Shown: in pieces, positions 55,328 to 60,326 of the stretch
Layout: each line of letters starts with the position of its first letter
How positions within the stretch are numbered: position 1 is the first letter of the stretch
Source of the DNA: Candidatus Aenigmatarchaeota archaeon
GTDB lineage: Archaea; Aenigmatarchaeota; Aenigmatarchaeia; CG10238-14; SCSR01
Assembly: GCA_038998335.1 (NCBI GenBank)
Contig: JAVZHQ010000001.1
Span: 224,001-288,000, forward strand
Length of the DNA stretch: 64,000 nucleotides
Reading direction: 5' to 3'
Program-made: the position numbers and the translations under genes
The notes under the pieces: model-generated
Database searches by the model: none
What the model was told of the DNA's origin: nothing
What the model saw: only the letters and a program-made list of their open reading frames with translations

Positions 55328-56427
55328 TTTTCCACCTCTTTTAAGAACAAGTCAAAAAGGAATTCTGTGTCTAAAGGACCAGGAGAGGCTTCTGGATGGA
55401 ATTGCACTCCAAAAATACTTTTTTTCTTGTGTTTTATTCCTTCTATTGTTTTGTCGTTAGCGTTTATGAACCAAGGCTCAAAATCGGTTTCTTTCAAAGA
55501 ATTCAACTCTATAGCATAGCCATGGTTTTGACTTGTTATGTAGCATTTTTTTGTTTTCAAATCAATTACAGGGTGGTTTTGGCCTCTGTGACCAAACTTA
55601 AGTTTGTAAGTTTTTGCACCAGAAGCTAAGGCGAGAATTTGGTTTCCAAGGCAAATTCCCATTATCGGTAACTCAGTTTCTAAGAGTTTTTTCACTGTTT
55701 CTATGGTTTCTTTAACCATTTCTGGGTTTCCTGGGCCGTTTGAAATAACTATTCCATTTGGTTCAAAGTCAAGAATTTTATCACAAGAAAAATTGTAAGG
55801 AACTCTTATCACACTAAAATTTCTTTCAAGCAGACTTCTTAAAATTCCGTATTTTGTCCCACAATCTATCAAAACAACTTTTCTTTTCCCAGAATTATAT
55901 TCTATTGGCTTAGAAATACTAACCTCTTTAACCAAATTTCTTTTGTTTGGGTCTTCTATTTTATTCAGTTTTCCTTTTATTTCTTCTAAATCATAATCTC
56001 CAACTTTTAGAATTCCAAGCATAACTCCCTTTATTCTTAATTTTTTTGTTAGTTCACGAGTATCTATTCCTTCTATTCCTGGAATTTTTTGCTCATAAAG
56101 CCATTCTTCTAAACTTTTCTTACAAGTCCAGTGGCTTGGGTTTCTCTGAAGCTCAGAAATAACATAACCTTTAACTTTTATTCCTTCGGACTCGAAGTGC
56201 AAAGGAATCCCTTTTTCTTTTATAGAAAGGGAAGGTACTCCATAGCAACCTATAAGAACATAAGTTTGAACAAGAATTTGACCGAAATAAGAAGGATCTG
56301 TTAAAGCTTCTGGGTAGCCTACCATTCCAGTATTAAAAACAACCTCACCAGAAACTTCACAAGGATAACCAAAGCCTTTCCCTTCAAGAATTGTTCCATC
56401 TTCAAGGGCTAAAATTGCTTTAAGCAA
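55315..56427 (-). CDS. carA: carbamoyl-phosphate synthase small subunit
   Basis: GEVVFNTGMVGY, SNGPG, GICLG, QFHPE. Confidence 0.95.
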   Translation of the reverse strand: MLKAILALEDGTILEGKGFGYPCEVSGEVVFNTGMVGYPEALTDPSYFGQILVQTYVLIGCYGVPSLSIKEKGIPLHFESEGIKVKGYVISELQRNPSHWTCKKSLEEWLYEQKIPGIEGIDTRELTKKLRIKGVMLGILKVGDYDLEEIKGKLNKIEDPNKRNLVKEVSISKPIEYNSGKRKVVLIDCGTKYGILRSLLERNFSVIRVPYNFSCDKILDFEPNGIVISNGPGNPEMVKETIETVKKLLETELPIMGICLGNQILALASGAKTYKLKFGHRGQNHPVIDLKTKKCYITSQNHGYAIELNSLKETDFEPWFINANDKTIEGIKHKKKSIFGVQFHPEASPGPLDTEFLFDLFLKEVEKCQG

Positions 56428-56468
56428 TGCCCACTCTTATTTTTGTTTTTTGAAGTATTTAAAATTAA

Positions 56469-57167
56469 TCAAATTATATTGTAAAGTCTTAGAACGATTT
56501 GTTCCAAATCTGGTTCAAACAAGCCGTATTTTTCAAGGTTTGAGGAATAAGAAATGAAAGAATCTTCATAATCTTCAACTTTTTTTCTAAACTCTTCTAT
56601 CTTGTTTTCTTTTATCCATTTTTCAACCTTAACTTTTTCTCCTTCAAAGCAGCCTGGACAAAGCTCTATTTCCACATACTTTTTATCAACATGTAAAAAA
56701 GGGTATTTCTTACAAACCCACGGCCTAACAGGATAAATTTCGCATAAGTTTGAATTGCTCAGGAAAATGCATTTACCGTCAGGCTTTTGTTTAAGAGTTA
56801 GAATATCATCAGAAACTTCAAAGTAGTGCTTGAAGGTTTGTTTTCTATCAAGGTCGATAAAAGAGCAGATTTTTTCAAATTCTTCTGGAAGAACAGAAAC
56901 TTTTCTTTTGATACAGCAATCGCCATCTTTTATACAATTGAAGTAAAAAAATTCTTCTTTGTTCAAAATGAGGATTGGGAGAAAAAATTCTCCTGTGTAT
57001 TGCAATTTTATAAGTTTATCTCTTCCGTAAACTTTTGTTACAAGCTTACAAGCTTGTATAGCATACTTGCTTCTTGAAAAGATTGCTGGGTCATTTCGAA
57101 AAAGGCCTAATATAGAAAGAGTTCTTAGGATTTCTTCTGGTTTTATCACGACTTCAAATTTTTCCAT
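56469..57167 (-). CDS. YkgJ-family (CxxCxxCC-type) cysteine-cluster protein
   Basis: CIKDGDCC (second Cys replaced by Asp), CIFL, CEIYPVRPWVCKKYPF. Confidence 0.75.
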   Translation of the reverse strand: MEKFEVVIKPEEILRTLSILGLFRNDPAIFSRSKYAIQACKLVTKVYGRDKLIKLQYTGEFFLPILILNKEEFFYFNCIKDGDCCIKRKVSVLPEEFEKICSFIDLDRKQTFKHYFEVSDDILTLKQKPDGKCIFLSNSNLCEIYPVRPWVCKKYPFLHVDKKYVEIELCPGCFEGEKVKVEKWIKENKIEEFRKKVEDYEDSFISYSSNLEKYGLFEPDLEQIVLRLYNII

Positions 57168-57225
57168 AATGAAATTTTAGAAAAAAAGCTTTTAAGATTG
57201 TAGCAACTCAGATAACTAAGTTCAG

Positions 57226-57370
57226 CGCCGAGGCTGGGATTTGAACCCAGAAGGGGCAAAGCCCCACCAGCTTTCTCAACTCACCTCCGACTCATCATTA
57301 GTCAGAGTCAAGCCATTTTATCATTGAAAGACTCAAGGCTGGCGCGTTAGCCAGGTTCCGCCACCTCGGC
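57226..57370 (-). tRNA. tRNA-Ser(TGA) with 59-nt intron at 37/38 (57273-57331)
   Basis: Acceptor GCCGAGG/CCTCGGC with G73; CCAGC-CTTGAG|A-GCTGG; variable arm GGGGC-TTT-GCCCC; GTTCAAATC. Confidence 0.93.
57273..57331 (-). ncRNA. putative box C/D guide sRNA encoded by the tRNA-Ser intron
   Basis: C (ATGATAA) - 12 nt - D' (CTGA) - 3 nt - C' (ATGATGA) - 12 nt - D (TTGA). Confidence 0.7.
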
Positions 57371-57399
57371 TTCCTCATCTTTATTCAGACCTTGAGTCT
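57371..57399 (-). ncRNA. putative D'/C' box guide in the pre-tRNA-Ser 5' leader, targeting U34
   Basis: AGACTCAAGGT-CTGA-ATAAAG-ATGAGGA; the guide is complementary to GCCTTGAG|TCT of the same pre-tRNA. Confidence 0.7.
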
Positions 57400-57465
57400 A
57401 ATTAAAATATGAGTTTTAATTTTAAAATATTAGAACTTAAAAATTAAATTTATCAAATTAATTTT

Positions 57466-57825
57466 ATGAGTGCTGCTTTACAAGCTTTAAGTATATTACT
57501 TTTGTTTCTTGGAGAAGCTTTAGCGATTTATTCTGAGATTGCTGGCGCAAACAAAGTTTTGAATGAGAATAAAATATCAAGCGAAACATTCCTTTGGTTT
57601 TTTCTTTTGATAACTATCGCAGGATTACCTTTAATAGCTGGTTATTTTTTGGGAATAATTGCTTTTAAAAACATTTGGATAGTAAGCGTAGTTTCAATAG
57701 TTTCTATTTTGATAGTAGAACCAATTTTAGCCTATTTAATTTTTAAACAATTCCCAACTTATGGAGCGTTAATTGGTTTAATTCTAGGTTCAGTTGGTTT
57801 GATTATAACCTTAGTTGTAAAGTAG
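57466..57825 (+). CDS. small 4-TM membrane protein
   Basis: Four hydrophobic helices. Confidence 0.65.
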   Translation: MSAALQALSILLLFLGEALAIYSEIAGANKVLNENKISSETFLWFFLLITIAGLPLIAGYFLGIIAFKNIWIVSVVSIVSILIVEPILAYLIFKQFPTYGALIGLILGSVGLIITLVVK

Positions 57826-57855
57826 AAAATTTTTGTAAAGTTTAAATAGGAAAAA

Positions 57856-58104
57856 TTAATCTCTTTTCTTGAAACTTTTGAGAAATTTGACGTAATTCTT
57901 TAAAAAAAGAAAATCCCCTAAAATTGTAATTCCTAGCTCTGCCCCAAGAATGTATGGATTTTGTTCAGCAGCCCTAAAATATCCGTTTGTTGCTATCTCA
58001 TAAAACAAAAGGTTTTGAAGAAAAAGAGCACCGCCTATTATGCTATAATAAGCTATGTCTAAAATCTTTTCCTTATAATTCTTCAATCTTTCTGTTTTTT
58101 TCAT
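57856..58104 (-). CDS. small 2-TM membrane protein
   Basis: Two hydrophobic segments. Confidence 0.55.
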   Translation of the reverse strand: MKKTERLKNYKEKILDIAYYSIIGGALFLQNLLFYEIATNGYFRAAEQNPYILGAELGITILGDFLFLKNYVKFLKSFKKRD

Positions 58105-58184
58105 GGGAAAAAGTTAAAAACAAAAAAATTTAAGCTTTTTTGCTTCTTGGAAATAAAAAATATCATAAAAGTTAATTTTAATTT

Positions 58185-58832
58185 ATGGATGAATTTTTGC
58201 TTAACAGGTTTTTAATTCCTTTGGTTTTAACTGCAATTTTCTTTTATTTTCAAGCTTATTGGAAAAATTTGGAAAATTTTCTCAAAAAAAGAATTAAAAA
58301 TAAAAGGAAGCTTAAAACCTTTTTGTTTTTATTAGACTGCTTAAAAGTTAAGAGGGTAAGTTTAAAAAGAATTGTTTTTGTTCCTCTAGTTTATTCTATC
58401 CTGCTTGAAGTTTTTCTTTCTTTAATTTTTCATAACCCTTTGCACGGATTTTTTGAACCGGTTTGGTTTGCAGGTTTGACCTCTGGCTTTCTTTCTCCAA
58501 TTGCTGAAGAATTTTTAACAAGAGCTGTATTTCTTGGCTTTTGTGGTTCAGGCTTGCTAGCTGTTTTAAAGTTGAGGGGAGTGAAATTTAACAGAGAAAA
58601 AGAGTATGCTTACTATTTTGTATGGCTTCTTATTTCCTCGCTTGTTTTTGTTCTTGCTCATGAAAATTTTACTCTTTTCCAGTTTATTCTTAGGTTTTCT
58701 CTTTCCATGCTTTACGGAATTCTTTACTTAGTTAACAGAAGAAATGTTTTGCCTAGCATAGTAGCTCATGCTAGTGCTAACTGGTTTATAATCTTGAAGG
58801 ATTATATACTTGGGTTTGAAAGTATTATTTAA
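58185..58832 (+). CDS. CPBP (Abi/CAAX) family intramembrane metalloprotease
   Basis: PIAEEFLTR, FVLAH, AHASAN. Confidence 0.8.
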   Translation: MDEFLLNRFLIPLVLTAIFFYFQAYWKNLENFLKKRIKNKRKLKTFLFLLDCLKVKRVSLKRIVFVPLVYSILLEVFLSLIFHNPLHGFFEPVWFAGLTSGFLSPIAEEFLTRAVFLGFCGSGLLAVLKLRGVKFNREKEYAYYFVWLLISSLVFVLAHENFTLFQFILRFSLSMLYGILYLVNRRNVLPSIVAHASANWFIILKDYILGFESII

Positions 58833-58842
58833 AGTAAGTTTT

Positions 58843-59127
58843 TCACTCCCTCACTATTCTTCCACTTCTTGGTACAGAAACCTGAAGCTTATCCCTAAAC
58901 TCAGTAACAAAAGCTCCTGTTATCGAAACAGTATCTCCTATGCTTACAGCTTTTATTTGCTCTCCCCACAAAGTTAAAGTTACTTGCCCAGTTTCATCTT
59001 CAATAGTAGCGTCGGCAACACTTCTTTTGCCATACCTTGTCATTACTTCACGTTTATCAGAAATGTCAATAACTTTTGCTCTTAAGCTTACGTTACTCAT
59101 TCCATTTTTTAACTCGTTTATTTTCAT
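58843..59127 (-). CDS. ssb: single OB-fold ssDNA-binding protein (SSB/RPA)
   Basis: MKINELK.G, DETGQVTLTLWGE, GAFVTEFRDKLQ. Confidence 0.85.
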   Translation of the reverse strand: MKINELKNGMSNVSLRAKVIDISDKREVMTRYGKRSVADATIEDETGQVTLTLWGEQIKAVSIGDTVSITGAFVTEFRDKLQVSVPRSGRIVRE

Positions 59128-59131
59128 TCTT

Positions 59132-59332
59132 TCACAATTTTAAATCGTGTTTAAAGTTATTAAGCTTTGCTTTTTCTAAAGGCCAGGCATCTTCTATTAG
59201 TAAATCAGGAACGTTTTCTAAAACAGGAAAAGCAAGCTCGCATTTTTTGCAAACCAAAAACATTTCCTTTTCTTCTATCTTTTCCTTGCATTTTGGACAA
59301 GCCAAAATTTCTAAAAGCTCTTTTGGAAGCAT
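59132..59332 (-). CDS. Trm112-family methyltransferase activator
   Basis: LLEILACPKCK...LVCKKC...FPV..VPDLL. Confidence 0.85.
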   Translation of the reverse strand: MLPKELLEILACPKCKEKIEEKEMFLVCKKCELAFPVLENVPDLLIEDAWPLEKAKLNNFKHDLKL

Positions 59333-59366
59333 AAGGATTATTTGAAAATTTAAAAATAAAACTTTT

Positions 59367-60326
59367 TTATTTAAAGCTTGGATAAGTTCCAGGTTTCATG
59401 AAAACCTTATCAGTTTTTATTGCTATCCCTTTCTTCTTTTCAAACATTTCCTCGCTACTCAAAACAGCTTTTCCTAAGGCAACTAGCTCTTCTTTCAAAG
59501 TATAAACAGCTACTATTTCATTTTTCTCTATTCCTTCTTGAATTCTTGTTAAGCCTGAGCAGAAAACTGGCGCTCCATGACAAATTGAATCGACAGCAGA
59601 ATCTTTAACAAAAACTCTTTTTAAGTGCAAAACAGCGAACTCAACAGGAATCAAAATTTCTTTTAAAAATTTTTCATTTCCTTCTTTCCAAAATTCATAA
59701 GCATCCCTAATCTCCACTAAGGAATGAGCCTGCTCTTCAGTAAAATTTCCTGCTTTTGTCCTTCTTAGCTCAGTTAAATGAGCTCCTATTCCTAAGTTTA
59801 AGCCTAAATCGCTAACAAGCTTTCTTATATAAACTCCAGCTTGGCATCCAACTTTAAACAAAACATCCTTTCCTTCAATTTCCAAAATATCAAAAAAATA
59901 AACTCTTTTTTCTCTTGGTTTTCTTGCAACTGCACTTCTTACAGGCGGGACTTGAACTATTTTCCCAACAAACTTTTTTACTCCTTCTCTTAAAATTTCT
60001 TCATCAACTTGCTTGTGTAAGTGCATCACTCCTACGTATTCTTTATCTAAACCTAAAAGCACACTCATAGCTTTTGTTGCGTTATCTAAGGCTACAGGTA
60101 AAACTCCAGTCACACCAGGATTTCCTCAAAGCTCTAAGGTCCCAGCATGACCAGCCTTTTTTGCTTGAAATATTTCTTTTATCCACTGAGTTACTTGATG
60201 GCTTGTTGGTCCTGCATGCTTATCAACTATTATCACAGAATTTTTTATTTGCTCTTCTATGCTTCTCTGGCTAGGCCTTTTCCCATAACTTTCGTCAGTT
60301 TCTTCTTCTGCTTTAATCAGCCAGAT
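59367..60326 (-). CDS. cbf5: H/ACA pseudouridine synthase Cbf5; exon 1 60326-60134, intron 60133-60122, exon 2 60121-59367
   Basis: DKHAGPTSHQV...GHAGTL[D]PGVTGVL, GVYIRKL, ELRRT, C-terminal PUA domain; start apparently ATC. Confidence 0.9.
60122..60133 (-). other. 12-nt BHB mRNA intron in cbf5
   Basis: AGCTTTGAGGAA contains an in-frame TGA; its removal gives GAT (Asp); central helix CCUU/GAGG, bulges AGA and AAA. Confidence 0.88.

Follow-up and report, generated by a model that had tools for sequence, protein, structure and literature searches.

Eukaryotic intron-encoded small nucleolar RNAs (snoRNAs) reside in spliceosomal introns and depend on exonucleolytic processing, and in archaea the intron of pre-tRNA-Trp (in Haloferax, and as sR50 in Pyrococcus) guides methylation of its own tRNA at C34 and U39. 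Archaeal box C/D small RNAs (sRNAs) share the consensus RUGAUGA for box C and CUGA for box D. Residence of a C/D guide in the tRNA-Trp intron is treated as known for archaea in a review (PMC7994747), and the elongator tRNA-Met of Nanoarchaeum equitans carries a stable C/D-like intron, described in the context of 'mobile C/D box sRNAs' (Randau 2012, PMC3491384). A further sRNA of N. equitans, sR13, pairs through its D' guide with 16S rRNA positions 1405-1415 and through its D guide with positions 1531-1540 (Seistrup et al. 2017, PMC5389701); Am1408 and Am1534 of this organism have been verified with matrix-assisted laser desorption/ionization mass spectrometry (MALDI-MS) and RiboMeth-seq (PMC5389701), and its sRNAs have been catalogued (Dennis et al. 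2015, PMC4644070). In Ignicoccus hospitalis, an organism that has RsmA, the D' guide of sR56 directs 2'-O-methylation at 1408 (PMC5389701). Here we describe an intron-borne box C/D sRNA in a 64,000-nucleotide (nt) stretch, hereafter the window, of a Candidatus Aenigmatarchaeota genome (GenBank assembly GCA_038998335.1, contig JAVZHQ010000001.1, positions 224,001 to 288,000). Judged from sequence comparisons, the intron of the tRNA-Ser(UGA) gene in this window is very probably a functional dual-guide box C/D sRNA and an orthologue of N. equitans sR13.

The source genome (G000; genomes, contigs, loci, families and genera are identified by codes such as G000, C1, L122, f1 and g29) is an assembly of approximately 1.0 Mb on 9 contigs, with 33% G+C. 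An initial annotation of the window, made from the sequence alone, had placed the boxes and spacers of a C/D sRNA on the minus strand of the intron, and direct reading of the sequence agrees with it at every position. Its suggestion that a tRNA intron here carries a trans-acting guide has gained comparative support from the conservation of guides and boxes, the lack of a host-tRNA match, the correspondence to the 16S sites of sR13, covariation at the D' guide, and the presence of genes for L7Ae, Nop5 and fibrillarin. The features of the gene are given below with window coordinates; A1 denotes an alignment of 57 distinct copies of the sRNA, R1 a sequence-only covariance model built from A1, and K-turn a kink-turn.

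57226-57370, minus strand: tRNA-Ser(UGA) gene with intron (ARAGORN with introns allowed, tRNA-Ser(tga) i(38,59); Rfam tRNA)
57332-57370, minus strand: 5' exon, tRNA positions 1-37, with anticodon UGA at 57335-57333 (ARAGORN and direct reading)
57337-57334, minus strand: 5' strand of the central helix of the bulge-helix-bulge (BHB) motif, CUUG, i.e., C32 U33 U34 G35 (structure by hand)
57273-57331, minus strand: 59-nt intron at the canonical 37/38 position, predicted sR13-like box C/D sRNA (ARAGORN, direct reading, model R1)
57328-57326, minus strand: 5' half of the terminal stem, UUC; the K-turn bulge AAU (3 nt) comes directly after it (direct reading)
57324-57318, minus strand: box C, AUGAUAA (direct reading)
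57317-57306, minus strand: D' guide, 12 nt, AAUGGCUUGACU (direct reading)
57305-57302, minus strand: box D', CUGA (direct reading; A1)
57298-57292, minus strand: box C', AUGAUGA (direct reading; A1)
57291-57280, minus strand: D guide, 12 nt, GUCGGAGGUGAG (direct reading)
57279-57276, minus strand: box D, UUGA (direct reading)
57278-57275, minus strand: 3' strand of the BHB central helix, UGAG (structure by hand)
57275-57273, minus strand: 3' half of the terminal stem, GAA, overlapping the 3' splice bulge (direct reading)
57226-57272, minus strand: 3' exon (ARAGORN and direct reading)

Both guide spacers are exactly 12 nt long, in agreement with the spacing of about 12 nt that characterizes archaeal C/D sRNAs, and the three nucleotides CUA separate the D' CUGA from box C', which corresponds to a kink-loop (K-loop) spacing of 3 nt. 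The caution in the initial annotation that boxes C and D each contain one mismatch refers to G6 to A in box C and C1 to U in box D; these two deviations lie opposite each other in the K-turn, where they form an A-U pair, and AUGAUAA and UUGA retain both of the G.A pairs expected of a K-turn. With regard to the targets, for which E. coli position numbers were carried over from PMC5389701 rather than obtained by alignment of the 16S rRNA of this genome, the D' guide pairs with nucleotides 1422-1430 of the organism's own 16S rRNA, GUCAAGCCA (G000:C1, approximately 409068-409076), through 9 contiguous pairs plus 1, which puts the A1408-equivalent at the N+5 position in a U-A pair. The D guide pairs over 8 bp with the 3' tail of 16S rRNA, UCACCUCC (own nucleotides 1539-1546), with the C1535-equivalent at N+5 in a G-C pair. 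A single sRNA thus combines a D' guide to 1405-1415 with a D guide to 1531-1540, as sR13 does; the duplex of at least 9 bp that the initial annotation had named as a requirement is found for the D' guide and, at 8 bp, falls short for the D guide. The weight for these 16S targets comes from three observations by which they are supported at the sequence level: the guide cores are kept in all hosts, guide and target covary, and the complementarities of N. equitans sR13 are published. In A1, the D guide core GGAGGUGA is conserved and both guide cores are preserved across all hosts. Genomes in which the 16S rRNA has GUCAAACCA carry U in the D' guide in 5 of 5 cases, whereas with GUCAAGCCA the guide has C in 26 of 28 cases and U, giving a G.U pair, in the other 2; a clash of C with A does not occur in this table, of which 6 rows were unreadable. 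Pairing of the D guide with the tail extends to 12 bp in some relatives (e.g., G038) and up to 12 bp in genus g29. Taken together, the guide most likely directs sugar methylation of two 16S rRNA sites near the decoding end; methylation of the Am1408/Am1534 type is taken from the literature on N. equitans, and we infer it for the present organism.

Conservation across the order provides the second body of evidence. When the 146-nt gene was used as a BLAST query against 41 genomes, full-length matches were obtained in several families, while other genera matched query positions 47-95 only, i.e., exactly from box C to box D; the intron-bearing gene is 95-100% identical over its whole length within the genus and in G012. 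A strict pattern (end of the D' guide, CUGA, UGAUGA, GAGGUGA) was found in 53 of the 118 genomes of the order, once in each (twice in G095), and the same pattern read backwards, as a control, gave 0 matches. Phylum-wide, the strict pattern occurred in 50 of 371 genomes, all of them inside this order, as compared to 0 of 253 elsewhere in the phylum. Model R1, which scores 61.6 bits on the intron described here, detected the sRNA in 77 of the 118 genomes of the order and in 28 of its 34 high-quality genomes, at about one copy per genome. A1, most rows of which were gathered by patterns that demand CTGA or CYGA or that fix guide and box motifs, has invariant and near-invariant columns in guides and boxes, and variable flanks and a variable D'-C' loop; within box D', G and A do not vary and C and U hardly vary (CYGA in all rows), and most columns of box C' are invariant. 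Conservation of the boxes in orthologous introns had been named as a check on the initial annotation, and both guides and all four boxes are kept. Among 44 copies, box C position 6 and box D position 1 combine as A-U in 40, as U-U in one and as A-C in one; both free-standing outgroup copies, which are included in the 44, have G-C. When a bulge of 2-4 nt is allowed, 38 of the 53 distinct homologues have a terminal stem of at least 4 bp beside the boxes vs 15% of controls made by taking 5' and 3' flanks from different copies; in the strict register with a 3-nt bulge, a stem of at least 3 bp was found in 57% of copies vs 17% of controls. Two variants of the architecture may be mentioned: in 16S-hosted copies of genus g29 (L029, L095-L100), box D is degenerate (UUAA or UAAA) and the terminal helix is long and perfect, and an additional hairpin, rich in G+C and approximately 20-35 nt in size, lies between D' and C' in L049 (G014), L068 (G008), L074 (G023), L207/L208 (G065, G066) and L210 (G091).

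The closest relative of the intron among described RNAs is sR13, also a dual-guide box C/D sRNA, with which it has the guide cores GGCUUGACU and GGAGGUGA in common; in both cases, moreover, the organism lacks RsmA/Dim1. The N. equitans locus L122 is a free-standing homologue with guides complementary to the same two 16S stretches, and a free-standing copy with consensus boxes was found outside the order in an Altiarchaeota metagenome-assembled genome (MAG). These copies came from a global scan that returned 67 stretches, of which 23 were read as sequence and the others judged from record titles; 12 matches (bacterial, Methanocalculus) were rejected as chance, having long gaps within apparent coding regions. 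In contrast to sR13, which is a free-standing gene with G-C at C6/D1, the RNA described here is a tRNA intron with A-U at C6/D1, and its predicted D-guide site is C1535, as opposed to the A1534 measured in N. equitans. With the pre-tRNA-Trp intron it shares the placement of a complete box C/D guide inside a canonical 37/38 BHB tRNA intron; however, the tRNA-Trp guide acts on its own tRNA, whereas the guides of the tRNA-Ser intron mismatch the host tRNA and target 16S rRNA. The elongator tRNA-Met of N. equitans is, like the present case, a tRNA other than tRNA-Trp whose intron has C/D features in a DPANN archaeon, and the idea of sRNA genes with a changing genomic context is common to both (PMC3491384); the host tRNA is a different one, and neither a target nor residence in an rRNA intron is reported in the accessible text of that paper. 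The initial annotation had called the host tRNA unusual: tRNA-Ser does stand as the host, but it is less unique than that wording implied, in view of this tRNA-Met intron. As for eukaryotic intronic snoRNAs, splicing would free the guide from a host gene with a role in translation; the differences are that an endonuclease cuts at a BHB motif, that the hosts are RNA genes, and that in relatives the host is itself the target RNA. I. hospitalis sR56 resembles the intron sRNA in its D' target at 1408 and differs in that its second guide is directed to U1380 and not to the 3' tail (PMC5389701).

The copies of the sRNA whose host is also their target lie in the 16S rRNA gene. The flanks of every copy were read, and the order of host switches is taken from family and genus codes only. 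The sRNA is a tRNA-Ser(UGA) intron in 35 genomes (14 of family f1, 3 of f2, 1 of f3, 16 of f4 and 1 of f5), and the f1 set includes all 5 matched genomes of the genus of the source genome. In 43 genomes the 16S rRNA gene contains it instead, at a point upstream of the GGAUCACCUCC end, and thus in cis between its own two target sites. One genome with 6% contamination (G050) has both kinds of host, and both host states are present in genus g31. Rfam confirmed five of the 16S-hosted loci as archaeal small-subunit rRNA (SSU rRNA); Rfam SSU alignments end oddly around the inserts, and the flanks were read directly instead. Alignment with the insert-free 16S rRNA of G000 and a junction table, covering 43 distinct copies, gave the following insertion sites, listed by their position in 16S rRNA.

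16S site B3: before AAGUCG, 10 distinct copies
16S site B1: after AAGUCGYCA, 10 distinct copies
16S site B2: helix 45, within its 5' strand, 22 distinct copies, one of them truncated
16S site B4: after the loop of helix 45, 1 distinct copy

Analyzed by hand, the B1, B2 and B3 inserts have a 4-bp helix and 3-nt flanking bulges with the handedness of a BHB motif, and the inner helix covaries from genus to genus. The predicted cuts regenerate the insert-free sequence exactly at B2 (GCCGUA joined to CGGGAAC) and B3 (GGGGCUA joined to AGUCG), and the cuts derived by hand for B1 leave 2 extra A. We read the 16S inserts, from these sequence features, as endonuclease-spliced introns. Among three genomes with a 16S-hosted sRNA that were examined for the tRNA-Ser(UGA) gene, two have an intron-less gene and the third a short intron without the sRNA; the latter (L245, G019:C6) lies at position 37/38 and starts UCUUCA..AUG, like the sRNA-bearing introns, and may be a deletion remnant of one. 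As the sRNA occurs free-standing in N. equitans and the Altiarchaeota MAG and also within 16S introns, it appears to be a self-contained functional module. Further small, helix-flanked 16S inserts without the sRNA occur at or near the same sites (L040 in G019, L047 in G022, L084/L085 in G083 and G086), and G019 has an additional insert of the B1 type while its sRNA is at B2; the 3' end of 16S rRNA seems to be a hotspot of mini-introns in this family. Introns of the B2 type (e.g., L044, L045, L078) share two conserved motifs in helix 45 introns, CCUAA on the upstream side of the sRNA terminal stem and CCAAAA on its downstream side, which may be processing signals. In the literature searched we found no published account of a C/D guide that alternates between a tRNA intron and introns of its target 16S gene, although papers and supplements outside that search could differ.

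With regard to splicing of the tRNA-hosted form, the Rfam tRNA model matches the host gene at 42.3 bits (E 5e-8) with a 62-nt insert under a permissive E-value threshold; over the window, default ARAGORN without introns and Rfam at the gathering threshold detected neither the tRNA-Ser(UGA) gene nor the sRNA. The intron-bearing gene is the sole tRNA-Ser(UGA) that ARAGORN predicts in this genome; a second 'Ser(tga)' call (C1:785187-785307) was rejected because its anticodon reads UAA, which makes it a tRNA-Leu. Window positions 55500-59500 are contained, in whole or in part, in 11 of 13 listed runs; all 13 are hot-spring metagenome runs represented by contigs and classed, at a guess, as DNA, and an RNA run is not among them. 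In the splice motif as drawn by hand, the 5' bulge, A36 G37 and intron U1, directly follows the 5' strand of the central helix and the 3' bulge, A A and A38, directly follows the UGAG strand, so that two 3-nt bulges (AG-U and AA-A, with the hyphen at the cut) flank the helix CUUG/UGAG, which consists of 2 Watson-Crick and 2 G.U pairs; the motif is relaxed because this inner helix is imperfect. By this reading the gene has the features of a BHB intron and the predicted cuts would yield an 86-nt tRNA-Ser; the central helix is hand-derived, and the minimum free energy (MFE) fold that the folding tool gave does not draw it. Since box D is shared with the central helix, the splice motif and the terminal K-turn are mutually exclusive, and the K-turn could for this reason form once the intron is freed.

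The protein machinery for such an RNA is encoded in the genome: fibrillarin (281.9 bits), Nop (230.3 bits) and L7Ae (109.3 bits) were all detected, with the Nop5 and fibrillarin genes adjacent (C1:769150-770470), as were the splicing enzymes EndA (95.1 bits, 193 aa) and RtcB (547.2 bits). The RtcB match (G000:C1:120751-122073, L225) contains 2 TAA codons, for which an intein, a frameshift or an artefact of the alignment could account. In the mechanism that we propose, the pre-tRNA would fold the relaxed BHB motif, the splicing endonuclease EndA would cleave after G37 and before A38, and RtcB would ligate the exons and probably circularise the intron. The freed intron would then fold its terminal K-turn, made up of the UUC/GAA stem, the AAU bulge, tandem G.A pairs, U.U and A-U, as well as the D'/C' K-loop, bind L7Ae, and recruit Nop5 and fibrillarin. 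On the 16S strand atop helix 44, the D' guide would direct 2'-O-methylation of the A1408-equivalent at N+5, and on the anti-Shine-Dalgarno tail the D guide would place the C1535-equivalent at N+5 for methylation in trans; were both sites held simultaneously, the RNA might act as a clamp that reaches across helix 45 and fixes the 3' minor domain while the 30S subunit is being assembled. For this organism we infer the order of splicing, the circularisation and the clamp role.

A number of observations weigh against the identification of the intron as a functional sR13-type sRNA. Boxes C and D depart from the consensus, the terminal stem of this genome has just 3 bp, box D and the central helix of the splice motif overlap, and the D duplex of 8 bp is below the usual 9-bp rule. 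The internal hairpin against which the initial annotation had warned does exist (the D' region and the D spacer pair over 8 bp, -15.9 kcal/mol, z -2.58) and would sequester the D guide in naked RNA. The intron sRNA reaches the gathering score of no Rfam family; positions 57273-57328 give weak full-length matches to archaeal C/D families (snoPyro_CD at 21.9 bits, E 0.014; sR2; sR5). Shuffled guides equaled the real ones on the rRNAs in 45 of 300 trials for D' and 286 of 300 for D, so target matches within this single genome, not being significant against shuffles, were not counted as evidence by themselves. Because the patterns demand the boxes, the conservation counts are partly circular; the BLAST matches and R1 are less so, though R1 was trained on pattern-collected rows. 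The predicted D-guide site also varies by lineage, being C1535 here, A1534 in N. equitans and, by our own count, C1533 in the Altiarchaeota copy. Finally, the identity of L122 with sR13 is based on matching complementarities; the name sR13 is absent from PMC3491384.

One of these points, the shifting D-guide site, also bears on the explanation that best survives besides methylation guidance at both sites, namely that the RNA is mainly a 30S assembly chaperone or checkpoint, which holds the top strand of helix 44 away from the 3' tail up to a late stage of assembly and so replaces RsmA/KsgA/Dim1, with D-guide methylation secondary or absent; we regard this as possible, if on balance doubtful. 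Full-length RsmA/KsgA/Dim1 (PF00398) was found in 1 of the 118 genomes of the order (the contaminated G050, 6%) vs 162 of 253 genomes elsewhere in the phylum, and was detected in 14 of 14 control genomes; the genome described here has weak partial matches alone (25.8 bits, positions 20-85), and a 247-aa open reading frame (ORF) in L171 that had been considered as an RsmA candidate resembles, by eye, a tRNA methyltransferase. The loop of helix 45 with two adenosines is still present in its 16S rRNA. This absence mirrors the distribution of the strict sRNA pattern, which is the reverse (50 of 118 vs 0 of 253), and it fits the proposal, made in PMC5389701 for the RsmA-less Nanoarchaeota, that sR13 replaces the RsmA checkpoint. 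A chaperone would furthermore account for pairing that is kept while the N+5 position of the D guide shifts across lineages, for the 12-bp tail pairing that g29 copies keep despite a degenerate D box, and for the location of the sRNA in cis between both targets in 43 genomes. However, the correlation comprises one order and the Nanoarchaeota, i.e., about two events, RsmA-less families outside the order (f22-f26 and most of f8) are also without the strict pattern, and Ignicoccus methylates 1408 despite having RsmA (PMC5389701). The canonical D'/C' boxes and the exact 12-nt spacer favor true methyl transfer, for the D' site at any rate, and a chaperone role is in any case compatible with a dual-guide sRNA rather than exclusive of it.

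It is highly improbable that the boxes arose by chance in a structured intron of the ordinary kind or belong to a decaying, nonfunctional relic. The single mismatches in boxes C and D, the internal 8-bp hairpin, the sub-threshold Rfam scores and the non-significant target matches in a single genome would all suit that explanation; by contrast, chance or decay would leave unexplained the near-universal, single-copy conservation of guides and boxes over 77 genomes and three host types, the covariation of guide and target, and the 95-100% identity of the intron-bearing gene within the genus and in G012, and the two 'mismatches' pair with each other and represent the lineage consensus. Least probable of all is action in cis of the guide on the pre-tRNA that contains it, the role originally put forward for the tRNA-Trp intron, with which the canonical 37/38 position, as in tRNA-Trp (PMC7994747), would agree, since the complementarity to the host tRNA around positions 34 and 39 that marks the tRNA-Trp type is lacking, the two guides matching the mature host tRNA at no more than 7 and 8 of 12 positions, with the mismatches scattered (the initial annotation had likewise seen no clear complementarity to the host), the same guides occur in 16S introns and free-standing genes, and complementarity to the anticodon loop is carried by a separate element in the 5' leader.

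This leader element comprises the following features.

57399-57389, minus strand: leader guide, AGACUCAAGGU (direct reading)
57388-57385, minus strand: leader CUGA, followed by AUAAA (direct reading)
57379-57372, minus strand: leader GAUGAGGA, the whole element spanning 57372-57399 as a guide plus K-loop (direct reading)

The first ten bases of the leader guide are the reverse complement of C31-G37 together with intron nucleotides 1-3, and this complement has 2 matches in the window vs 0.19 expected. If the leader CUGA is taken as a D'-type box, the N+5 position is the wobble base U34. The element accompanies 9 of the 30 distinct tRNA-hosted copies, and its guide tracks the first intron bases with 3 compensating variants (AGA/UCU, AAG/CUU and AGU/ACU). 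Upstream of it there is no box C, only A+T-rich, promoter-like sequence. On these grounds we consider the leader a candidate cis-acting half C/D unit that is separate from the intron sRNA and that would need the intron for its pairing. Pairing of the leader would exclude the splice helix, and the order that we propose is thus methylation, removal of the leader, and splicing. Methylation of wobble bases by C/D guides is known for other tRNAs (PMC7994747), and no case of a leader-encoded guide was found in the literature searched. A second tRNA intron of the same genome, that of the tRNA-Ser(CGA) gene outside the window (L055:151-288; G000:C1:504696-504833), is 53 nt long and also has a C/D-like layout (AUGAGGA, CUGA, AUGAUGA, CUGA) with different guides, for which no convincing target was found among rRNAs or tRNAs; similar introns occur in G015 (L023), G006 (L027), G039 (L054) and G030 (L052).

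The RNA described here is of a known kind, i.e., a box C/D sRNA of the sR13 type, and residence in tRNA introns is known for tRNA-Trp and, in C/D-like form, for tRNA-Met (PMC7994747 and PMC3491384, respectively). What is new is the tRNA-Ser host, the predicted action in trans on rRNA and, most of all, that the sRNA alternates between this host and introns in the 16S gene that it targets. Intronic guide RNAs are the rule in animals; in archaea, they were previously represented by the tRNA-Trp intron, which targets its own tRNA, and one uncharacterised tRNA-Met intron. The natural series of free-standing gene, tRNA intron and 16S introns at no fewer than four positions allows the mobility of guide RNAs and the origin of intronic residence to be studied. 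For annotation, the case means that standard tRNA and Rfam scans overlook both the tRNA gene and the sRNA, and that 16S 3'-end introns lie within or beside the region of common 16S primers. The proposal that an sR13-type RNA replaces the RsmA/Dim1 step, elsewhere universal in small-subunit maturation, is extended to a second DPANN lineage and made testable. As a tentative picture, and one that we hold less likely to be right than wrong in its entirety, an essential guide may be the cargo of endonuclease-spliced introns that move from host to host, among them a tRNA-Ser gene and a number of positions in the same 16S gene whose RNA the guide modifies, in an order that has lost RsmA/KsgA/Dim1. 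The 16S-resident form would then couple intron removal, methylation of the decoding site and release of the anti-Shine-Dalgarno tail in cis, as an RNA-only checkpoint of the small subunit, and the tRNA-hosted transcript would also bear a half-guide in its leader, by which its own wobble base is methylated prior to splicing.

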